A stretch of 64,000 nucleotides of DNA, taken from sequence record PZ295659.1, one strand, 5' to 3'. A program made the translations under genes and the position numbers. The number at the start of each line of letters is the position of its first letter. Position 1 is the first letter of the stretch. The notes under the pieces are model-generated. The model was given only the letters and a program-made list of their open reading frames with translations. It made no database searches and was not told the DNA's origin. This DNA is from a phage. This document shows, piece by piece, positions 2,515-13,668 of this stretch.

Positions 2515-2763
2515 TTATTCTTTTTCGCGAATAATAATTACTTGTTGAGGCTGCTGAGCAGATTTCTTTTCGGCAACGATAGACCAAATTAAAGTTCCAA
2601 TCCAACCAACCATCGTCCAGTTAAAGAGTAAAGATACAAAGAAGATTGCTGTTGTGCTTTTTGTGCCACGAATAAGTGCGATTACCCAAGGCAACATGTA
2701 AATGATGATTGAACCAATACCTGCGATTAAAACCGCTACTGAACTAGCTACGAATAATTCCAT
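2515..2763 (-). CDS. small membrane protein, superinfection-immunity (Imm)-like
   Basis: 82 aa, two hydrophobic helices; LPWVIALIRG...NWTMVGWIGTLIWSI resembles the Imm_superinfect family signature. Confidence 0.55.
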   Translation of the reverse strand: MELFVASSVAVLIAGIGSIIIYMLPWVIALIRGTKSTTAIFFVSLLFNWTMVGWIGTLIWSIVAEKKSAQQPQQVIIIREKE

Positions 2764-2824
2764 GTTAATTTCCTCTTGATTTGTTATGTTTATAATATCT
2801 TATTTTAACTTTGGCGTAAACCAA

Positions 2825-3193
2825 TTAATTAAATTTGTTTAAACGTTCAATACACTGGACGTAGTTATTTGCGATTTGTTTCTGGGTAGGCTCTTTACCA
2901 GTTGTTTCAATATAGCGAATGAATGCGATTTCAGTAGCCTGTAAGCAATGTTCTTTAACGCGCTGTTCTTTTGACATAGCTACGGTATCAGAATCACGAT
3001 AACGTTGAGCATGAGCATCAGCTTGAATCATTCGATTACCTACAGTAACCGGGTCTTCCACTTCAACTTTAGGTTGGTCATACTGTTTAACATTCGGATT
3101 GTAAATCAGTTGGCCAACGTTATTAGGGATAAAGCCGTGGGCACCACATCCGGTTAATCCAAATACCATTGCTAAAGCGATTAATTTTTTCAT
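2825..3193 (-). CDS. putative lipoprotein
   Basis: 122 aa; MKKLIALAMVFGLTGC signal peptide with lipobox LTGC. Confidence 0.55.
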   Translation of the reverse strand: MKKLIALAMVFGLTGCGAHGFIPNNVGQLIYNPNVKQYDQPKVEVEDPVTVGNRMIQADAHAQRYRDSDTVAMSKEQRVKEHCLQATEIAFIRYIETTGKEPTQKQIANNYVQCIERLNKFN

Positions 3194-3210
3194 TTCAATT
3201 TCCTCTGTAG

Positions 3211-3251
3211 TTGATAGAAAGATAGTAACACAGTATGCGATGCTTGTAAAC
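3211..3251 (-). promoter_or_regulatory. early promoter (GTTTAC -35 type) for lipoprotein gene
   Basis: plus gtaaac at 3246-3251, stem-loop-like gatagaaagatagtaacac, GAGGA SD and ATG at 3193. Confidence 0.45.
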
Positions 3252-3253
3252 AG

Positions 3254-3466
3254 CTATTTTAAACTTTTGCGAAATTTGCGTTTTTCTTGACGAATCTGTC
3301 GTTTAGTCGGACGTACAGCAAATTTAACGAAGTCCACTTTACCGTGTGGAAACTTTTCAGATGCTTCACAGTCCATCATTAGTTCCCATCCTTCCAGAAT
3401 AAGAGCTTTCCATTGTGTAGTTGATGCAAATTCGTATGTTGATGGTTTAAACACAGTTGAATACAT
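3254..3466 (-). CDS. hypothetical small basic protein (VRPTKRQ motif family)
   Basis: ORF 3254..3511 in track; start placed at internal ATG 3466 with GAGGA SD; C-terminus FAVRPTKRQIRQEKRKFRKSLK; paralog at 31249..31446. Confidence 0.5.
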   Translation of the reverse strand: MYSTVFKPSTYEFASTTQWKALILEGWELMMDCEASEKFPHGKVDFVKFAVRPTKRQIRQEKRKFRKSLK

Positions 3467-3467
3467 A

Positions 3468-3659
3468 TTATCCTCTGAAATCAGCTTCGAAAACTTTCTC
3501 GTCATTAACAAACGCTTTAACTAATGCGTTGTTCACTTCAGCAAGTTGTACCGCAACCCACTCGATTTCTTCGCTATCACCTGATAACATGATATCTTTA
3601 GTGAACATCTCGCCGCTTTTAAACCAACCGATAAAAGTAACTTTAGTTAATTTGCTCAT
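3468..3659 (-). CDS. dmd: Dmd, antitoxin against host RnlA/LsoA RNases
   Basis: MSKLTKVTFIGWFKSGEMFTKD...YAEVNNALVKAFVNDEKV matches T4 Dmd (gene 61.5); ATG overlaps upstream stop (ATGA). Confidence 0.8.
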   Translation of the reverse strand: MSKLTKVTFIGWFKSGEMFTKDIMLSGDSEEIEWVAVQLAEVNNALVKAFVNDEKVFEADFRG

Positions 3660-3973: not shown

Positions 3974-4039
3974 TTTGTTCTCCTCTTGGTTGGTGTAAGT
4001 ACATCATATCATGCCTAGAGGAAGATGTAAACCCCGAAA

Positions 4040-4061
4040 GGAGACCGAAGTCTCCTTTTTA
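4040..4061. terminator. GC hairpin immediately 3' of gene 41 stop (orientation ambiguous)
   Basis: ggagac-cgaa-gtctcc at 4040-4055; T-run follows on plus strand, weaker U-tract on minus strand. Confidence 0.35.
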
Positions 4062-5504
4062 TTAAAATTTTAACTCATTGGCTAAGCTATCTAGGTCAGC
4101 ACGTGTTGTTTTGGCTTTACCTACGCGTTCCGTACGATTCATCTCTGCCTGACGCATCTGAGCACCTGCGTTTTCATTTACTGTGTTAGGTGTGTTCATG
4201 CCTTCTTGCTCAATCTCAACCCATTTCTGGTTGCCTTTACGTACACCCATCAGGAATTTATTCCACTTATTCTTATCACCGTATCGTGATTTGATTTGTT
4301 TGATAAGTTGTTGTTCAGCTTGTGCAAGTTCTTCGGTTTCAATTACGGCCAACATGAAATCTGCCGTTGCTGGTAAACCTGCTGATTCTGCAATATCGCT
4401 CATGTTCATATCCGAAGCATCCCATGCTGCACGTCCTACTTGAGCTGCAGTCCATAGAACTGTTTCAGATTCTACTGCTAATGCACGAAGTTCTTCTGCG
4501 ATAGCTTTAACTAATGTGTAGCTATTTTCAGTGTAAACTCTGATACGACAAGACCCACAAATACCTAAGTAATCAACCATGATTACAGATGGCACAAAGT
4601 TCTTCTTGAGTTTCAATTCATTAAGCAATGCACGGAATGTATTAGCATTAGCTCCACCAGTAGGATACTGTTTAACTACTAAACGTCCTAATGTGGATTT
4701 TGAACGCCATTTTTCCATCTTGGCTTTATATTCAGCATAAGATACGTTACCATCATCGATATCATCAAGTGATACGTCAAGCATGTTTGCATCTATACGC
4801 TTAGCACAAACTTCTTCAGCCATTTCCATGGAAATATAAAGAACATTATGACCTGTTTGAAGATAATCTGCAGCAAGTGAACAAAGGCCTAAAGATTTAC
4901 CAACGTTAACACCGGCCATTAAAACATTCAGTGTACCGGTTTCAGCACCACCTTTAGTGATTTTATTCAGAATGTTTAATTTGAACGGGACCTTACGTGC
5001 TTTGTTCAGATAAGAAAGCCAGCGGGCTTCATAGTCTTCCATCCAGTCGTGTCCAACATAACTATCAAACGAAATTGAAAGTGCTTGACGCATAATATCA
5101 GGAATAGCTCCTACGTCAGGCATTTTCTTGTTACGTTGTTCTGGAGGTAGTTCAGCATTAGACTGAATCTCAATGATTTTGGATGTAGCATTATACATCG
5201 CTTTTTGCTGGACATATTTCTCAGTTTCTTTAACCAACCATTCGTGGTCTTCAGGAGTATCAGCCAATTTTTCAATTAGGTCTGAAGTTCCTTTATATTC
5301 GGCTTCAGTTAAAGAACTGTTATCTAAAGCCACCTTTAATGCGTTGATAGACGGCATTGCATTATATTCGTTAACGTGGCTCTTTATAATTTTAAAGACG
5401 TTTTTTGCCGGTCCACGCTCAAAATACTCAGAATCCATATAAGGCCAAACCTTAGAAAAATAAGCCTGGTCATATACTAGATGAGACAAAATAATTTCTA
5501 CCAC
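4062..5504 (-). CDS. 41: replicative DNA helicase gp41 (DnaB-like)
   Basis: 480 aa, near-colinear with T4 gp41 (MVEIILSHL...Walker A GVNVGKS...). Confidence 0.95.
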   Translation of the reverse strand: MVEIILSHLVYDQAYFSKVWPYMDSEYFERGPAKNVFKIIKSHVNEYNAMPSINALKVALDNSSLTEAEYKGTSDLIEKLADTPEDHEWLVKETEKYVQQKAMYNATSKIIEIQSNAELPPEQRNKKMPDVGAIPDIMRQALSISFDSYVGHDWMEDYEARWLSYLNKARKVPFKLNILNKITKGGAETGTLNVLMAGVNVGKSLGLCSLAADYLQTGHNVLYISMEMAEEVCAKRIDANMLDVSLDDIDDGNVSYAEYKAKMEKWRSKSTLGRLVVKQYPTGGANANTFRALLNELKLKKNFVPSVIMVDYLGICGSCRIRVYTENSYTLVKAIAEELRALAVESETVLWTAAQVGRAAWDASDMNMSDIAESAGLPATADFMLAVIETEELAQAEQQLIKQIKSRYGDKNKWNKFLMGVRKGNQKWVEIEQEGMNTPNTVNENAGAQMRQAEMNRTERVGKAKTTRADLDSLANELKF

Positions 5505-5513
5505 GATAACTCC

Positions 5514-5855
5514 TTAAAAGAATTTAAATTTTTTCTTGGTCCGTTCATTAAAAGCTTGTTGTACTTGCATTGTAACACATTTTTCAACATGTGGTGCAAG
5601 TTCTGCTTTTCTGTCCTGGTCAAGAACTGCAAAGTCCATTACGATTTTACCATCAACCCAGTCTAGTTTTGTAATATAGACTATATGATGAGAACCATCT
5701 TCAAGCGTAATCAGAATCTCTTGAATGACATTTTCCATTGCTGAACGGATAATTTTAAGAGATTCATTAAACACTCGTTCTTTGCGAATGTCTTCCCCTT
5801 CCGAAGAAGGGGATTCATCAACGATTTCTAGATTTAAATCATCGAGATTATTCAT
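5514..5855 (-). CDS. 40: gp40 head vertex assembly chaperone
   Basis: Syntenic small ORF between uvsX and 41; track ORF starts at a TTG, ATG at 5855 preferred. Confidence 0.6.
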   Translation of the reverse strand: MNNLDDLNLEIVDESPSSEGEDIRKERVFNESLKIIRSAMENVIQEILITLEDGSHHIVYITKLDWVDGKIVMDFAVLDQDRKAELAPHVEKCVTMQVQQAFNERTKKKFKFF

Positions 5856-7020
5856 CGAAATCTTCCATTTCGTCAAGGTCGTTTTCTATATCTGCTGCAG
5901 ACGGAGCATCAGAAGTTTTAACCGGAACTTTAGTTGTTGCTTTGCAATTAATAAGGTCGTTAACAGCGTCATCAACTTCTTTAATAGAAGAGATAGCACC
6001 TAGTTTATATTTAGTTTCAATTGCATCTCGGAAAGGTTTGTGTTTAAACAACGGTCCCCAGAATTCTACACAATCAGTAGCTTTAGCACGCCATGATTTT
6101 TCTTCACGAATCATTTCACCTGTTTCTTCGTCAAGGAATTCACGAGCATACCAACCAGCTTTAGGCTTAACTACAAAACCAATTTCAGTTGCCATTTCTA
6201 ACAAGCCACTGAATGGGTCAATACCACCATCAAAATTAACTGTGATCGGAAAAGTAGATTTCTCTTTAACCGTACGAGATTTTTCTGCTTTCAACGTGAA
6301 GTCATAACCGGTCAATTCTGTACCTTCTTTAACCTGACGTTTAGAGATAAAGAATACAGTGTTAGCAGAGTAAAGAATACCTGTACCACCACCCATAATC
6401 TCTTTAGGATACAATCCGCCAATTTCCATTGCGGTATGGTTAATTGCAACACACGGAATATCTTTAATAGTCAGATACGGGGTCACAATGCGGAACAGAG
6501 ATTTAAGTGCCTTAGCACGAGACATATCACCTACAACTTTCTCGTTCAATGCATCTTCGGTTTCTTTCTTAGATGCAGTATTACCGATTGAATCGATAAA
6601 GATAATAACTTTATCACCGCGTTCAATCGCGTCAAGCTGATTAGTCATATCAACTTTAAGTTGTTCGACAGATTGAATCGGAGTATGAACTACACGGTCT
6701 AAATCAACACCCATTGAACGAAAATAAGATTCTGAAGCACCAAATTCTGAATCATAGAACAAACAAATTGCATCTTTATATTTCTTCATATATGCTGCAA
6801 CCATGGTCAGACCAAACAACGTTTTAAAGTGTTTAGAAGGAGCAGCAAAAATAGTTAAGCCTGATTGCAACCCGGCATTCAGTGCACCACCTAATGCAAT
6901 ATTCAACATCGGAATACGAGTAGGGACTTCATCACGATTATTAAACAGCTTAGACTTAGTCAAGTCTGCAGTCATTTTAGAAGTAGAAGCTTTAATCAGA
7001 CGAGATTTTAAATCAGACAT
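5848..7020 (-). CDS. uvsX: UvsX RecA-like recombinase
   Basis: 390 aa, MSDLKSRLIKASTSK... RecA fold motifs, colinear with T4 UvsX. Confidence 0.95.
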   Translation of the reverse strand: MSDLKSRLIKASTSKMTADLTKSKLFNNRDEVPTRIPMLNIALGGALNAGLQSGLTIFAAPSKHFKTLFGLTMVAAYMKKYKDAICLFYDSEFGASESYFRSMGVDLDRVVHTPIQSVEQLKVDMTNQLDAIERGDKVIIFIDSIGNTASKKETEDALNEKVVGDMSRAKALKSLFRIVTPYLTIKDIPCVAINHTAMEIGGLYPKEIMGGGTGILYSANTVFFISKRQVKEGTELTGYDFTLKAEKSRTVKEKSTFPITVNFDGGIDPFSGLLEMATEIGFVVKPKAGWYAREFLDEETGEMIREEKSWRAKATDCVEFWGPLFKHKPFRDAIETKYKLGAISSIKEVDDAVNDLINCKATTKVPVKTSDAPSAADIENDLDEMEDFDE

Positions 7021-7120
7021 TGTATTTTTTCCATAGGCATCATTATATTTTACTCATGTTTAAAAGATAAGACGATTATATACTAAGGGTTATACAGCAT
7101 TTAAAACTTTAAACAGGCTC

Positions 7121-7669
7121 TTAACGAGCCCATTTGATAATTTCTGTAATCAAATTATTACGTTCGCTTGCATTAAATCCTATAACTTTGTTAGCACCAT
7201 CATGATTAAGTAATTGATACGTTTGGATTTCGTTATGAATTGCAAACTCTTCAAAATATGAAATGACTGTATTAAAACCGAACGAAGACAAAGTAATAAG
7301 GTCGTCTTCAAAACTTTCAGTCATTTCGTTACGTGTTAAAATAATTGTGAACACATCATGGTTTTGGCAAAGACGAACATAATCCTGTTCATAAACGTCA
7401 AGAACCGAGTCCGCATCTTGTCGAATACGTCCATAAACCCAGTTACTAATATATCCACGGTCTAACAGATAAATCTTAGTAGGGTCTAAATAATTCAACA
7501 TCGTTTCGAAACAGCCAACTTCATTTCGAGACTTAACATCGAAACGTCCATCAACTGTTCGTTTAGGGAAATCAATCTTTACATATCTTTCGCTAATTTC
7601 CATTATGTCATTAATGAAAGTTGTTTTACCAGCATTATCCGGGCCATCTACTAAAATAATTTTAGCCAT
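7121..7669 (-). CDS. P-loop nucleoside-monophosphate-kinase-like protein (Tmk-like)
   Basis: 182 aa; Walker A ILVDGPDNAGKTT and LLDRGYIS (DRY-like) motif of thymidylate-kinase-type kinases. Confidence 0.6.
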   Translation of the reverse strand: MAKIILVDGPDNAGKTTFINDIMEISERYVKIDFPKRTVDGRFDVKSRNEVGCFETMLNYLDPTKIYLLDRGYISNWVYGRIRQDADSVLDVYEQDYVRLCQNHDVFTIILTRNEMTESFEDDLITLSSFGFNTVISYFEEFAIHNEIQTYQLLNHDGANKVIGFNASERNNLITEIIKWAR

Positions 7670-7670
7670 T

Positions 7671-8570
7671 TTATTCCTCGATTACGACATCTTCATATTT
7701 AGGTATATTATACGGCGAAGAAATTAAAGCATTAAAGTAGATGAACTCACCAAGACCTGGATGGAATACTTCTTCAGGATTTTCGAAATATTGAATCTTC
7801 GGTCGTCCTTTAAGAATTTGATAGTACTCAGTTTTAGTTGGGTTAAAAATTCGAATCAGCGCTTCTTCAGGATACTTATTTCTGTCGAAGCTATTATTTG
7901 GATCGGTTATATAAAGCGGTTGGCCTAATTGAATTGCACATTCAACCACTTGTTCAAAACGATAACACGGGTCACTAATTCGAAATGGATGAAAAATACC
8001 ATCTAGATGAATAGGAGCCAAATCACCTACAAGACGCTGCATGATGGAAGGACGTATAACTTTCTGCGTTACGATAATCTTATTACCATCTGCACCTGCG
8101 TTAACCAGCACTTCTTTTTGACGTTCATTCAACACAGTAGTTTGAAGTGAACGATTAACCGACAACATGTCGGTTTTTAAGAATTCGTCAATATAAAAAC
8201 GTGGTTTATTAGGGTCCGCAGTGATATTGAAATTGAATTCCACATCAAAAGCGCCGTCATATCCAGTGATATCTGTGATTAGAAAATCACAATCATAATA
8301 AGCAATTAATGAATCAACCACAAATTCATTTTCAGACCAGAAATATTTACGAGTGTTATATGCGTTATCTTTATACCATAATGGAACAAACTTAAATTCT
8401 GGGAAAAGACGTTCACATTCTTTAATATCAGATGCATTACGTGGATATGTAATCACATCACCCGGATTAGCACGGTGCAAATGAAGTTGGAAGTTGCCAT
8501 CCTTAAGGATAGCATACTGTCCAGTTTCATAAGACCGCATACTCAAGATAGGTACGCGGAAAATAGCCAT
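7671..8570 (-). CDS. hypothetical protein; candidate DNA glycosyl(arabinosyl)transferase
   Basis: 299-aa ORF at the position T4 uses for beta-gt, no clear T4 bgt similarity; HPGLGEF region faintly GT-B-like. Confidence 0.5.
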   Translation of the reverse strand: MAIFRVPILSMRSYETGQYAILKDGNFQLHLHRANPGDVITYPRNASDIKECERLFPEFKFVPLWYKDNAYNTRKYFWSENEFVVDSLIAYYDCDFLITDITGYDGAFDVEFNFNITADPNKPRFYIDEFLKTDMLSVNRSLQTTVLNERQKEVLVNAGADGNKIIVTQKVIRPSIMQRLVGDLAPIHLDGIFHPFRISDPCYRFEQVVECAIQLGQPLYITDPNNSFDRNKYPEEALIRIFNPTKTEYYQILKGRPKIQYFENPEEVFHPGLGEFIYFNALISSPYNIPKYEDVVIEE

Positions 8571-9286
8571 TAGTCAAGGAATCCTTTAACATAATCAAAA
8601 TCACGTTCAAACACATGGGCACTTACCATGGTATGAGTATAATCACCAACTTCTACACCACATTCGTTAGCGATATAATGAAGTAATTTTCCTTGGAGAT
8701 AAAAATCCAACTGCATAACAACAGCACAGTTCTGAGAACGCATATGACAGTGGGTATAAAGCTTACCATCACGAATATAATAAGTCACTGAGTCAGTACA
8801 TGGATATTCAAGTGTTTCGTCCGAATCAAGCAAAGCCTGATCTGAACTTTCTAGAATTTGGAACACAACTCTTCGGGAGTTAGGCTTCTCTTTAAGTTCT
8901 TTTAGAAGAGCTGGTAATTGAGCCGCAATGCGAGGACCGTAGAAAGTGTTGAAGTTTGCAGGCAAAGCGTCTGATTTAGGTTTAGAAATAAATTTAGCGA
9001 CATTAGGATATGCCTTAAATGCTTCTTCTGCATCAGTACCACCAGAAATCATAAACTTCCAGAAGTCTTCGGCATATTCATAAGAGATGCGATTAATACG
9101 TGGATCGGTCATTTTGAATGATGAAGGGGTATCAACAACTACTGTCATAGACCCAATTTCATTACAACGTCCAATACGAGAATCAGTAACGAACTGTGGA
9201 TTTTCTAAAATTTCACGATTAACAGCTTTAAATGCGGATTGAAAATCTGCGGCTTTAATATATTTCATTGTGTTATGTTTTCCCAT
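8570..9286 (-). CDS. 42: deoxypyrimidine (dCMP) hydroxymethylase, thymidylate-synthase family
   Basis: NSRRVV, catalytic YPCTDSVTYYIRDGKL, MRSQNCAVVMQLDFY, ECGVEVGDYTHTMVSAHVFERDF align with TS/gp42 core; Asp rather than TS Asn in the pyrimidine-recognition position. Confidence 0.75.
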   Translation of the reverse strand: MGKHNTMKYIKAADFQSAFKAVNREILENPQFVTDSRIGRCNEIGSMTVVVDTPSSFKMTDPRINRISYEYAEDFWKFMISGGTDAEEAFKAYPNVAKFISKPKSDALPANFNTFYGPRIAAQLPALLKELKEKPNSRRVVFQILESSDQALLDSDETLEYPCTDSVTYYIRDGKLYTHCHMRSQNCAVVMQLDFYLQGKLLHYIANECGVEVGDYTHTMVSAHVFERDFDYVKGFLD

Positions 9287-9302
9287 GTTTACCTCAATAC
9301 AG

Positions 9303-9330
9303 TTATTATATACTCAATTCATAAAGCTTA
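9303..9330 (-). promoter_or_regulatory. possible MotA-dependent middle promoter upstream of gene 42
   Basis: Minus strand AAGCTTTA (MotA-box-like) followed ~12 bp later by TATAAT. Confidence 0.35.
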
Positions 9331-9406
9331 TTTGAATTTCTTAGCAATGTTGATATAACGTAAAGCTTCAGCATCGATACTTCCAAGAACACTATGAAGA
9401 AATGCA

Positions 9407-9568
9407 TCAGCGTAGTATTCTAGTTGAACAGGTTTCTTTAATCACTTTAGCCGCTTTAGTTTCAAACAGGCCCATAAGGGCCTTTTTAAGAATTTGTTCG
9501 TTGCTGTTAATTTTCGTAGTCAAAATCTCTTCATTAAGTTGGTGGTTAAAAGTTTTTCTAGAAATCAT
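9407..9568 (-). CDS. micro-ORF (53 aa) translationally coupled to upstream gene
   Basis: ATG overlaps stop of 386-aa gene (ATGA), GAGGT SD; MISRKTFNHQLNEEILTTKINSNEQILKKALMGLFETKAAKVIKETCSTRILR. Confidence 0.35.
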   Translation of the reverse strand: MISRKTFNHQLNEEILTTKINSNEQILKKALMGLFETKAAKVIKETCSTRILR

Positions 9569-10725
9569 TCCGGGTACCTCAAAGCGTCGTCAGAGTTAGT
9601 TATATCAATAATAGATATAGAGTTTTCTGCTAACCCATTTTTAGATAACTGACGTTTATAATATCTTTCACAATATGTACACGTCGTCCCGCAGATTTCA
9701 TTAGCACAATCGAAATCTGGATGTCTGAACCACCTTTTTTCTAAAAAGCCATCTAACAAAGAGGTTTCAATATTTACCGTATGTGAAAACTCGGTCTCAT
9801 TTTCAAGAGTGAAAATAGTCTCTAAAGGCTTCCACAATTCCAACAAATTACCTTCAAATTTTTCAGAAGCATAAGCTTCAAGAACTTTCAAAATGTAGTC
9901 TGTGCTACCTGTACGTCCTGAAACTTTGAATTGAGTGATACCAATATCATTATAAAGTTTCAAATCTTGAGGACGAACAAAACGAGTTCTCAACCAGTTA
10001 AATGGGTCTGTATCACGAGCTTTAATACAGTGTTGCATTGGATAGCCATTTAAGGATTTGGCATCATCTACTGTAACGTCGGTGCTATGGAAAATATAGC
10101 AAGAGTCACGATAGCTACAATGTGTTGTATACCCTTTACCAGCATTAGAACAGAACTCATTTACAAGAACTTCAAATATTATATTGTTCTTATTGCAAAA
10201 CTCTGCTGCACGCTTCAGGAAAGAAACTGAACGGTTCTTATGAATTCCACAGCAGACCTTTTTGATATTATATTGGTCATGCAAGTATTTGATTTGAGTT
10301 ACAGCATCGACATGTAGAATTGTTGAAACTTCAATCTCAATGTCTTTATTAACTTCACGAACAATTTCCATAACAACAGGGTTAGCGATAGTAATACGCC
10401 ATACGCCTATTGACCAAAGATACTGAACATAATCCTGAATAGCTTTCTTCTTCCACTCAACTAGTTCTCTTTTTGAACCAGGATTTATCGTGTTGAGTGT
10501 ATAGTTAAAGCAAATACCTAATTCGTTACAACGTTTAACATAATCTTCTAACATCTTTTTGTCAACGTCAGGAAGCCTAAAATCAGGTCTGGCTGCTACA
10601 AAAGCCATTTCTCTTGTAGAGCCGTATACTTCATTTATCAAGCTATTAGGATAAGTTTTATTGAGCTCTACGATTTTATCAAGAAGAGCTAAATCAAAAT
10701 TCGTTCCGATTTTAAAAGTATTCAT
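9565..10725 (-). CDS. Cys-rich enzyme of unknown function (U32-like layout, C-terminal CX4CX3CX2C cluster)
   Basis: 386 aa; N-terminal region resembles peptidase-U32-type TIM-barrel proteins; C-terminal CANEICGTTCTYC; several central Cys. Confidence 0.5.
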   Translation of the reverse strand: MNTFKIGTNFDLALLDKIVELNKTYPNSLINEVYGSTREMAFVAARPDFRLPDVDKKMLEDYVKRCNELGICFNYTLNTINPGSKRELVEWKKKAIQDYVQYLWSIGVWRITIANPVVMEIVREVNKDIEIEVSTILHVDAVTQIKYLHDQYNIKKVCCGIHKNRSVSFLKRAAEFCNKNNIIFEVLVNEFCSNAGKGYTTHCSYRDSCYIFHSTDVTVDDAKSLNGYPMQHCIKARDTDPFNWLRTRFVRPQDLKLYNDIGITQFKVSGRTGSTDYILKVLEAYASEKFEGNLLELWKPLETIFTLENETEFSHTVNIETSLLDGFLEKRWFRHPDFDCANEICGTTCTYCERYYKRQLSKNGLAENSISIIDITNSDDALRYPE

Positions 10726-10779
10726 TTTTACATCTCGCGTTAATTGATGCGATGGTTTTTGCAGGTCTTACTTAAATTA

Positions 10780-11181
10780 TTATAGATTCGGTTTATATGA
10801 TTTAAATGTTTCGAATTCGCCTTTATTCATAAGAGCTTTGAATTCGTCAGGACGCATAGCTTTGTCGTCGATAATCCAATCATATACTGGTTTATGTGTT
10901 AGCAAATTATGGTACTTCAAGCCAATGTTTGCCAAGTTCTGAATCAGACTTGGGAGAATGTCAATTGCTATACGACCAGGACCTACTGACTTCATACCGC
11001 GAGCAGTGTAAAGCGTTATTGTATGCCCTGCATCATACAGGGCATTAATGGCAGACACCATTTCGACGTCTGGTTTGAAGTTCACGTAATCACGATTGTT
11101 ATTCCACTCGGTTATACAATCATCGACATCAAAACAAAGATTAAGCATGTTTTCTACACGGTGCATTAGATTCGTTCCCAT
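10780..11181 (-). CDS. HAD-superfamily phosphatase-like protein
   Basis: 133 aa; motif I FDVDDCIT, motif II LYTAR, motif IV IIDDK. Confidence 0.6.
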   Translation of the reverse strand: MGTNLMHRVENMLNLCFDVDDCITEWNNNRDYVNFKPDVEMVSAINALYDAGHTITLYTARGMKSVGPGRIAIDILPSLIQNLANIGLKYHNLLTHKPVYDWIIDDKAMRPDEFKALMNKGEFETFKSYKPNL

Positions 11182-12851
11182 TGATGAGTGATATCGCCAC
11201 CGATTGGACGATAGGAAACACCAGTTTCTTTATCAGTTAGTACCCATTTACCAGGATTTTTTGTAATCAGAGTAGCCGTTACAGGTTCTGCTACGTCATA
11301 ACTAATAGAGCCGTCTTGAAGTACACGGCCCATGTTACGTAATTGCTTAGTCAGAAGTTCCATACCTTTATAATATGCGGCTACCGCTTTAAGTGGATTA
11401 TTCTTGAAATAACCACCTAATGCAATCCAGATAATTGCTACAGCCAAATGATGATACTCGTTAAACGAACTCATCTTTCCATATTTGTAAACTAATGGAT
11501 TGATGTTAATAGTCACATTACAAGTTGTTTCATCAATAGTAAACTGACCCCAGGTCGGATTAGCGTTGAATTCATCATAACCTGAAACAGCGTAAAGCAC
11601 TTTAGCTTCATCATACAATTTTGGCCCGTAAATCTTGGTTTCACCAAAATATCCACGAGGGTCGATAAACTTGACTTCACCATTATCAGTAATCATAGTA
11701 TTACTGAAGTTCGGGTCACCATGAATAACAGAGTACTGTCCCTGAGAACGGTTATGATAACGAATAAGGTGTTCTAAAGCTTGTTTCAACATTGGCTTCA
11801 GACGTCCAATCTTAGTGTAGTTCACATGTGTGATTTTACCAAATGAATCAATCAATGGTTGAATACTTTCACAACGATCAATAACTTTCGTATAGAATTC
11901 TTTAGTGAAATCACGACGAACAGTTTCAGGACTTACAAAATAAGTGTCTGTGCTGAATTTCAGTGCATCTAAAATTGCATCAACAATTTGTGGACGAGCA
12001 AGACTCGATTTGGATTTAATATATTCAAATGCCGGCTTACCTTTAATGCGTTCCATTTCAAAGTTATTTTCATTAACAGAAACTAACTGAGGAACTGAAT
12101 CTGATTTCACTTTAAGATACCATGAAATCTCATCTTTCTGAAGAGCTCGACCCTGTTCGGTTAATGCGAATTTAGTTACAGTTTCTTCACCAATTTCAAC
12201 TGCATTAAAACTACGATTAAGTTCACGAACTTCATGAGCTTTTTCAAGTTTAGGCATATCACCTAAATCAATTAGATTCATAAGCTCTGATTTATTGAAT
12301 GCGCTGCCGTAAAGGAATTCTACGAAATCACGCCCTTTGCAGTATTCATGAATTTCCTCATCAGTAGAACCCATATAGAATTCCCAGTCTTTGAACTGAT
12401 AAATTCCTACAACATTACCACCTGTTGAACCTACGTTAGTGATATTTTCACCGTCGAAATTATATCGACATTCGTCACCCTTAACATAGATTGCGTTAAC
12501 ATTCCAAGACCATGAACCAAAATCAGGAATAATATCGCACCAGTTAACAATTACATTATGGCTGTCTAAATCTTTGTGTAATTTAGCAAGAGCATAAGCA
12601 GAACCATACGCTTCATCAACTGTACGAATAGTCACATTGAACCCTTCTTGCTCACAATAAGCTCGAACAGTTTCAGCAAATTTTGAATGAACTACTACAA
12701 TAATTTCATCTGCGCCAAGGTCAGAATAAATTGTATACAAATTGCTCAGAATAGTGTCTTGTTTATAGTTAACAAGCACCTTAGGAATATGATGCGTTAT
12801 TGGATACAAACGAGTTGCCAGTCCAGCACCAAGAATAACAGCTTTTTTCAT
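11166..12851 (-). CDS. bifunctional sugar-1-phosphate nucleotidyltransferase / APH-family anomeric sugar kinase
   Basis: 561 aa; N-terminal VILGAGLATRLYPIT (G-x-G-T-R-L NTase motif); C-terminal VIHGDPNFSN...KFIDPRG (Brenner motif and DxG of choline/aminoglycoside kinase fold). Confidence 0.8.
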   Translation of the reverse strand: MKKAVILGAGLATRLYPITHHIPKVLVNYKQDTILSNLYTIYSDLGADEIIVVVHSKFAETVRAYCEQEGFNVTIRTVDEAYGSAYALAKLHKDLDSHNVIVNWCDIIPDFGSWSWNVNAIYVKGDECRYNFDGENITNVGSTGGNVVGIYQFKDWEFYMGSTDEEIHEYCKGRDFVEFLYGSAFNKSELMNLIDLGDMPKLEKAHEVRELNRSFNAVEIGEETVTKFALTEQGRALQKDEISWYLKVKSDSVPQLVSVNENNFEMERIKGKPAFEYIKSKSSLARPQIVDAILDALKFSTDTYFVSPETVRRDFTKEFYTKVIDRCESIQPLIDSFGKITHVNYTKIGRLKPMLKQALEHLIRYHNRSQGQYSVIHGDPNFSNTMITDNGEVKFIDPRGYFGETKIYGPKLYDEAKVLYAVSGYDEFNANPTWGQFTIDETTCNVTININPLVYKYGKMSSFNEYHHLAVAIIWIALGGYFKNNPLKAVAAYYKGMELLTKQLRNMGRVLQDGSISYDVAEPVTATLITKNPGKWVLTDKETGVSYRPIGGDITHQWERI

Positions 12852-12892
12852 GTTGTGGTCCTCATTGGTAAGTAGGAGTATTGTACACTATT

Positions 12893-13036
12893 CTAGTTAA
12901 AGCATTCATACTTTGCTTGTAGTCCAATCATAATCCATCCGATTACAAGTGTTGGAATCATTACTGGAGCCGTTAAGCTCCAGTAGATAGTCATGACAAG
13001 CATCAATAGTAAAAGTCCTATTGTTATTGCTTTCAT
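12893..13036 (-). CDS. micro-ORF encoding 47-aa hydrophobic peptide
   Basis: ATG overlaps stop of SIS gene (ATGA); MKAITIGLLLLMLVMTIYWSLTAPVMIPTLVIGWIMIGLQAKYECFN; followed by GAGGA SD of NTase/kinase gene. Confidence 0.4.
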   Translation of the reverse strand: MKAITIGLLLLMLVMTIYWSLTAPVMIPTLVIGWIMIGLQAKYECFN

Positions 13037-13668
13037 TGTTCGCCTCGTAACATGGCACCTAGTGCACCGCCAGGGTGGAACTTAAGGAAGTCATTAGAGG
13101 TAAATCCACGTTCAGACGAAAGGTTGATAGCAAACGTATCGATAAGCGCTAACAACAATGTAGTGGACATGGTCGGAGCCAGAGAATTCTCATCAACCTC
13201 TACTGCGATGCCTGTACAGAACGTATAATCAAAAAGAGCTTCATATTCTTGTGGAATGTCTGGGTTACAATGCAACAGAATCTGTTTGACGTTCGGACGA
13301 ATCATTTTAAGATGCTTAGCCACGCCTATCATTTCTTCAGTTTTACCAGAACGACTAATATGAATCAACACATCATTAGGCGCAATGAATCCTGCATCAC
13401 CGTGAGAATAATGCCCGGTGTTCAAGTACATACTAGGGATACCGAGTGAAGCAAATGTTTCAGAAGCTTTAGTTGCAATATTAGCATTCTTACCAACACC
13501 TGTAATAATTACTCGGCTTTCATAATTACTAAGCCCTGGGCGTCGAAGAGTTTCTAGAATAGCATTATAACGAGCAGGGTTTTGACTAATTACTTTGGCC
13601 ATAGCGGCCAAAGAAGAAGCTTGTTTTATGATTGCGTCAATAGCGATAGTAATAGGAGTAGTTTTCAT
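13033..13668 (-). CDS. D-arabinose-5-phosphate isomerase (KdsD/GutQ-like, SIS domain only)
   Basis: 211 aa; IITGVGKNANIATKASETFASLGIPSMYLNTGHYSHGDAG parallels KdsD GMGKSGHIG.K.AATFASTGTPSFF.HPGEASHGDLG. Confidence 0.8.
   Translation of the reverse strand: MKTTPITIAIDAIIKQASSLAAMAKVISQNPARYNAILETLRRPGLSNYESRVIITGVGKNANIATKASETFASLGIPSMYLNTGHYSHGDAGFIAPNDVLIHISRSGKTEEMIGVAKHLKMIRPNVKQILLHCNPDIPQEYEALFDYTFCTGIAVEVDENSLAPTMSTTLLLALIDTFAINLSSERGFTSNDFLKFHPGGALGAMLRGEQ

Follow-up and report, generated by a model that had tools for sequence, protein, structure and literature searches.

A GT-B-fold protein encoded beside a 5-hydroxy-dCMP synthase homolog is the probable first arabinosyltransferase of an RB69-type phage

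We analyzed a 64,000-nucleotide stretch of phage DNA (sequence record PZ295659.1), here called the window, and focused on a gene at positions 7671..8570 of its minus strand, which encodes from an ATG start a 299-amino-acid (aa) protein with a GT-B glycosyltransferase (GT) fold, a candidate first arabinofuranosyltransferase for the modified cytosine of this phage. The source phage is T4-like and belongs to the RB69 group (Mosigvirus), with positions 7000-13000 being 98-98.6% identical to PHB12, F2, JS09, and many others, and all genes of the region lie on the minus strand. Directly upstream is a 238-aa thymidylate synthase (TS) homolog (8570..9286, minus strand; Pfam Thymidylat_synt, E 2.4e-15). 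The ATG of the 299-aa gene overlaps the TAA of the TS homolog in a TAATG stop/start element read from the sequence (8568..8572, minus strand; gacTAATGgct), which bears out the start-stop coupling described in a first-pass annotation of this DNA. At its other end, a single base separates the TAA of the 299-aa gene from the ATG of a gene for a 182-aa thymidylate-kinase-like P-loop protein (7121..7669, minus strand; phrog_761, E 5e-45; ortholog of RB69 gp45, 180/182 identical), with GAGGAA just 5' of the kinase start codon, and uvsX lies beyond (5848..7020, minus strand). In T4, the slot between gene 42 and uvsX holds the beta-glucosyltransferase gene b-gt (PMC6024577). The first-pass annotation had placed the 299-aa gene in the corresponding slot between the TS homolog and uvsX; the gene does lie there, but because the kinase gene separates it from uvsX, it shares the slot rather than filling it alone. 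A scan of the run from the TS homolog through the 299-aa gene to the kinase gene found neither a sigma-70 promoter nor an intrinsic terminator that exceeded chance, and since such sites stay at chance level, co-transcription of the three genes is plausible from the sequence. No other glycosyltransferase homologs were found in the 64-kb window.

The 299-aa frame is a real gene and not a chance open reading frame (ORF), having both a confident AlphaFold model and full-length homologs with 45-100% identity in 349 phage records. These homologs are found in phages of Escherichia, Acinetobacter, Klebsiella, Shigella, Serratia, Enterobacter, Proteus, Yersinia, and Shewanella, where they carry the database label 'hypothetical protein' (for example, bas47_0146). 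The protein falls into phrog_3891 (E 1.5e-155), and its family is small, amounting at 50% identity to 228 clusters within a set of 1.84 billion representatives. A search of Pfam with hmmscan (E<=1) returned 0 families, as did NCBIfam, and a profile of 77 homologs had no match at E<0.3 among all PDB sequences. The gene had been called an orphan, which is apt in that it is unannotated, matching nothing in Pfam, NCBIfam, or the PDB sequences, but it is not novel, being a member of a defined family that occurs in ~350 phages and that earlier papers have treated. The gene is intact and orthologous to RB69 ORF047c plus ORF046c (gp46:47), with 98.6% nucleotide identity and few residues different. The RB69 reference (NC_004928; 2598-3498 of locus L007) carries an extra T at gene position 545 that splits the gene into ORF047c and ORF046c, while the frame is intact in the window copy and in ~340 other phages. 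Lee et al. (NAR 2026, PMC13326640) describe RB69 genes 46 and 47 as a single ORF split by a sequencing error, and on structural grounds they named RB69 gp46:47 and DLP3 gp79 'arabinosyltransferase 1'. An arabinosyltransferase role has already been predicted in print for this gene, and between the protein of the window and these phrog_3891 members there is no substantive difference, save that the window gene is unbroken; the published assignment was itself made by structural prediction. Over its full length, the 299-aa protein is 45.6% identical to DLP3_079 (gp79) and 47% identical to Thanatos TH1_063.

The AlphaFold model of the 299-aa protein (predicted local distance difference test score 95.7, predicted template modeling score 0.90) consists of two Rossmann-like beta/alpha/beta domains with a cleft between them, which is the GT-B fold with which the first-pass annotation had proposed a comparison. 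Foldseek matches in the PDB belong to the GT-B fold class, with 2-epimerases of uridine diphosphate (UDP)-N-acetylglucosamine (UDP-GlcNAc; E 1.5e-6) and MshA on top, and the matches among viral models are the 299-aa family itself, followed by viral glycosyltransferases. The invariant residues of the C-terminal domain (F193-x-P-F-R197-x-S-D200, T222-D-P-N225, K246, H270-P-G272, and E/D275) sit at the C-terminal ends of strands, which is the nucleotide-sugar site of GT-B enzymes, and a second invariant cluster occupies the first loop of the N-terminal domain (M11-R-S13, K23-D-G-N26, R33, and R74). Binding and transfer of a nucleoside diphosphate sugar by this protein is thus predicted, indirectly, from the invariant residues at the strand ends of the C-terminal domain of the model. 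The CAZy GT4 family of retaining GT-B enzymes (sucrose-phosphate synthase 6kih, BshA, PimA, and MshA) differs from the 299-aa protein in sequence (7-12% identity) and in length (340-400 aa versus 299), and the predicted acceptor of the 299-aa protein, a nucleobase hydroxyl, sets it apart as well.

Two other activities have to be weighed against this fold. Since UDP-GlcNAc 2-epimerases are the best PDB matches, the protein might act on a UDP-sugar as a GT-B enzyme other than a transferase, such as in an epimerase- or mutase-like step of donor synthesis; we consider this very unlikely. The other is that the protein activates the sugar as a UDP-pentose pyrophosphorylase and does not transfer it, as has been claimed for the 47%-identical TH1_063. 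When His-tagged TH1_063 was incubated with UTP and xylose-1-phosphate, liquid chromatography-tandem mass spectrometry revealed a UDP-xylose peak that was absent without the enzyme (PMC12838424). In the 299-aa protein, we found neither the NTP_transferase fold nor its N-terminal Gly-rich signature, and a pyrophosphorylase role appears quite improbable to us.

The identity of the acceptor depends on the chemistry of the modified base. Thomas et al. (2018) reported that RB69 DNA contains arabinose, described the base as arabinosyl-hydroxymethylcytosine, and proposed ORF003c as the transferase (PMC6024577). Nuclear magnetic resonance (NMR) and mass spectrometry (MS) identify the RB69 base as beta-D-arabinofuranosyl-(1-3)-alpha-D-arabinofuranose, ether-linked to the C5 oxygen of 5-hydroxycytosine (5hoC) and not to hydroxymethylcytosine (hmC) (PMC13326640), and arabinose on 5hoC was confirmed for the Mosigvirus NP (PMC13390438). 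Moreover, the TS homolog of RB69, gp48, was shown experimentally to make 5-hydroxy-dCMP (5hodCMP) with flavin and O2 (PMC13326640). The TS homolog of the window is identical to gp48 at 236/238 positions and near-identical to the solved HY126 structures 9iqc/9ir2. The first-pass annotation had taken this upstream gene for a hydroxymethylase and hmC for the sugar acceptor, and both claims give way to a 5-hydroxy-dCMP synthase and 5hoC, respectively. An arabinosyltransferase acting on hmC, analogous to the T4 beta-glucosyltransferase, would suit the shared position between gene 42 and uvsX as well as the 2018 description of the base, but the NMR and MS data on RB69, the confirmation in NP, and the near-identity of the upstream enzyme to gp48 all speak against it. 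The 299-aa family also has no profile similarity to a b-gt homolog, that of phage PS2 (hhalign probability 0.2%), so the earlier remark that the protein does not resemble T4 Bgt holds at the profile level, and we find the hmC alternative extremely doubtful. The 299-aa protein would accordingly differ from the alpha- and the beta-glucosyltransferase of T4 not only in lacking sequence or profile similarity, as tested against the PS2 homolog, but also in its predicted donor (UDP-arabinofuranose, not UDP-glucose) and its predicted acceptor (5hoC, not hmC).

PS2 itself, an hmC-glucosylating Serratia phage of the genus Muldoonvirus, carries a true homolog of the 299-aa family. FF83_gp042 (308 aa; 4001-4927 of locus L002) is related to the family with an hhalign probability of 99.3% (E 2.8e-20) and lies directly after gene 42 and before ba-gt and b-gt. 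Almost all family-invariant residues are lost in it, with MRS, KDGN, PFRISD, TDPN, and HPG replaced, and its sequence suggests either a decayed relic or a protein of changed function.

Further upstream on the minus strand are genes that match the supply of an arabinose donor. A 133-aa HAD phosphatase (10780..11181; NCBIfam capsule biosynthesis phosphatase, E 4e-13) corresponds to RB69 gp51 and is the analog of HY126 AfhF, with a role in UDP-arabinofuranose supply, and a 561-aa bifunctional sugar-1-phosphate nucleotidyltransferase and kinase (11166..12851; Pfam NTP_transferase, E 7e-10, with kinase-like C-terminal matches) corresponds to RB69 gp52:53 and is the analog of AfhE, with a role in making the UDP-arabinose donor (both roles per PMC13326640). 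A 211-aa SIS-domain protein (13033..13668; Pfam SIS, E 1.7e-10) is the ortholog of RB69 gp55 and is assigned as an arabinose-5-phosphate isomerase from the RB69 annotation at the syntenic position. Within the cluster there is also a 386-aa U32-family protein (9565..10725, minus strand; Pfam Peptidase_U32, E 6e-11, with a weak UbiU match), the ortholog of RB69 gp50. Among U32 members, RlhA, TrhP, and UbiU/V hydroxylate without O2, the rRNA product of RlhA being 5-hydroxycytidine. The U32-family protein of the window could offer an anaerobic route to the 5-hydroxy base that complements the O2- and flavin-dependent TS homolog; elsewhere, a kinase-GT fusion has a U32-like gene (8179-9276 of locus L012) two genes downstream of it.

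The 299-aa candidate transferase is inherited together with UDP-arabinose genes and the kinase-like gene. Of the phage records, 349 contain the transferase (five of them seemingly the divergent Muldoonvirus form), 344 the kinase-like gene, and 377 the AfhE-like gene, and the counts by genus are near-identical for transferase, kinase, and AfhE-like gene (for example, Escherichia 177/177/177, Acinetobacter 57/57/57, and Shigella 15/15/15). The order of SIS isomerase, AfhE-like gene, HAD phosphatase, TS homolog, GT, and kinase-like gene is kept in 217-356 kb metagenomic contigs in which the GT has only ~37% identity, and the adjacency of TS homolog and GT is kept in a still more distant member as well as in Thanatos and DLP3. 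The lineage of MX01, JS10, and AnYang has a different arrangement, with the kinase-like gene ~0.7 kb upstream of the transferase and not immediately downstream (MX01, NC_031934.1, 22522-23412 and 24137-24634). In this lineage, the AfhE-like protein is ~42% identical and the GT ~67%; the displaced kinase and the low identity of the AfhE-like protein therefore show that the cluster was rearranged or partly replaced there.

A second type of transferase, that of RB69 ORF003c, has a narrower distribution. This type, which includes the HY126 GT (9iqz, 9ir0) and DLP3 gp76 and gp77, is a family independent of the 299-aa type (hhalign found no relationship between the two families, with a probability of 0.1%) and is encoded elsewhere in the genome, outside the window. 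It occurs in just 212 phage records, with one copy in Mosigvirus and two in Acinetobacter phages, and is confined to phages that carry at least two arabinoses; it had no match in those Serratia, Klebsiella, Enterobacter, Proteus, Yersinia, and Shewanella phages that have the 299-aa gene, including Thanatos. Arabinose chains have been reported to consist of one sugar in Thanatos and LC53, two in RB69, Bas46, and NP, and three in DLP3, and ORF003c copy numbers of 0, 1, and 2 track chain lengths of 1, 2, and 3. Since no other GT-like gene is shared by all such phages, the 299-aa type fits the first, base-proximal step. The reverse assignment, in which the ORF003c type adds the first arabinose and the 299-aa enzyme the second, would agree with the 2018 proposal of ORF003c as the arabinosyltransferase (PMC6024577) and with the choice of its HY126 ortholog for crystallography with UDP. 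Against it stand the tracking of chain length by ORF003c copies and the 130-odd genomes that have the 299-aa gene and the UDP-arabinose genes without the ORF003c type, among them that of the mono-arabinosylated Thanatos. In addition, activity on DNA has been demonstrated for the ORF003c type, with DLP3 gp76 and gp77 adding the third arabinose (PMC13326640). We therefore give the reverse assignment little chance of being right.

Together, these findings suggest that, in the pathway of 5-hydroxycytosine hypermodification, the 299-aa gene very probably encodes the first arabinofuranosyltransferase, a reading to which we assign a probability of roughly 70%; its transfer activity, its UDP-arabinofuranose (UDP-Araf) donor, the alpha linkage, and the acceptor are what we infer. 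The fold, orthology, synteny, and co-occurrence of the gene come from the present analysis, and the literature supplies the base chemistry, the activity of the hydroxylase, and parts of the UDP-arabinose pathway. In the proposed pathway, the TS homolog, to which the 299-aa gene is translationally coupled, would make the acceptor as 5-hydroxy-dCMP, while the neighboring isomerase, kinase/uridylyltransferase, and phosphatase would supply the UDP-Araf donor. The 299-aa protein, as a compact two-domain GT-B enzyme, would then add the base-proximal D-arabinofuranose to the 5-hydroxyl of 5-hydroxycytosine, and the ORF003c-type transferase encoded outside the window would extend the chain to the di-arabinoside of RB69-type virions. 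By analogy with the T4 paradigm, 5hoC in replicated DNA is somewhat more likely to be the acceptor than the free nucleotide. What endures of the first-pass proposal is the candidate arabinosyltransferase for a modified cytosine, by fold, synteny, phyletic pattern, and the published prediction for an identical gene, though not hmC as its acceptor.

Several observations weigh against this assignment. The EX7E motif on the donor-binding helix is a signature of GT4 enzymes. The 299-aa family has no canonical EX7E: in terms of sequence positions only, E/D is 100% conserved at 263 and 275 (spacing 11), and 267, the position that an EX7E would require to be acidic, is mostly K or T. Nor does the protein match the GT4 family profiles Glycos_transf_1 (PF00534) and Glyco_trans_4, so it fails the GT4 signatures at both levels, and the UDP-GlcNAc 2-epimerases among its top Foldseek matches are not transferases. 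Judged from its model, the protein is GT-B transferase-like, yet by sequence it is not demonstrably a member of GT4 or of the T4 transferases. Direct assays have been negative as well. Single purified DLP3 GTs, including gp79, gave no arabinosylation of 5hoC-DNA with either UDP-Araf or UDP-Arap (PMC13326640), and Thanatos TH1_063 gave no transfer in vitro, where only unhydroxylated acceptors and UDP-xylose were tried (PMC12838424). In the literature surveyed, He et al. 2026 and Mahler et al. 2025 aside, transferase activity has been shown for no member of the 299-aa family. The HY126 proteins with PDB structures are the TS homolog and the ORF003c-type GT (9iqz, 9ir0), the latter solved by He et al. 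(Nat Chem Biol 2026); neither the 299-aa protein nor the kinase has a structure there.

Both transferase candidates, the one at 7671..8570 of the window and RB69 ORF003c (2520-3620 of locus L006), resemble retaining GT4 enzymes. At least one of the two must invert, because the first linkage is alpha and the second beta, and both presumably draw on one UDP-Araf donor.

The negative result with DLP3 gp79 also bears on when the first sugar is added. In a tentative alternative, which we regard as possible but clearly the less probable course, the 299-aa enzyme would add the first arabinose to free 5-hydroxy-dCMP before replication, the 182-aa TMP-kinase-like protein would phosphorylate the product, the polymerase would incorporate the glycosylated dCTP analogue, and later sugars would be added on DNA. 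This is consistent with the translationally coupled triad of TS homolog, GT, and kinase, a triad also listed for the unrelated galactosylating phage RL38J1, and with the co-occurrence of kinase and GT at near-identical genus counts in ~344 phage records each. A separate canonical deoxynucleoside monophosphate (dNMP) kinase already accepts 5hodCMP (PMC13326640), and the 299-aa family is acidic, with a median isoelectric point of 5.2. Moreover, the authors of the gp79 experiment cannot tell the nucleotide level from the DNA level (PMC13326640). On the other hand, the T4 precedent is post-replicative glucosylation, and expression of gp48 together with the dNMP kinase does bring unglycosylated 5hodC nucleotides into DNA (PMC13326640).

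Natural fusions of GT and kinase, in both domain orders, also point toward the nucleotide level. The metagenomic proteins P0233, P0234, P0256, P0258, P0228, P0240, and P0212, distant members of the 299-aa family, have a GT domain followed by a 190-aa domain, and P0232 has the reverse order. The 190-aa domain possesses a Walker A motif and the motif (D/T)R-x-(Y/F)-(I/V)-S-(N/D)-x-V-Y, as does the 182-aa kinase-like protein of the window, and one fusion member has a weak match to Pfam Thymidylate_kin. When standalone kinases were aligned with the fused extension by hhalign, the two were related with a probability of 94% (E 9e-8, 154 columns); BLAST of the window kinase and HAD proteins against the fusion extensions returned nothing, and only hhalign made the link to the kinase. 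HAD-GT fusions occur too, with a KdsC-like HAD phosphatase fused to the GT in P0140, P0149, P0150, P0181, and P0169, and since these exist, a GT-kinase fusion may mean a shared pathway and no more. The HAD extension matches the KdsC-like phosphatases of distant contigs, weakly, rather than the Mosigvirus HAD. The genomic context of P0233 and P0140 is uninformative, as their contigs span 1.8-2.5 kb.

Arabinosylated 5-hydroxycytosine shields many T4-like phages, some of which are candidates for therapy against E. coli, Klebsiella, and Acinetobacter, against attack by restriction enzymes, by the Brig1 glycosylase, and by certain CRISPR systems. The enzyme that adds the first sugar takes the committed step of this shield, which is the one step without reconstitution in the literature surveyed. 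Our analysis does not describe a new kind of system but re-identifies a gene that databases call 'hypothetical protein' and that the RB69 reference splits in two. The points of remaining interest are the level of the acceptor, be it nucleotide or DNA, and the part played by the kinase that is inherited with the gene. If the first arabinose is indeed added to the nucleotide, pre-replicative glycosylation would depart from the sixty-year-old T-even paradigm, and the route would offer enzymatic access to glycosylated deoxynucleoside triphosphates.
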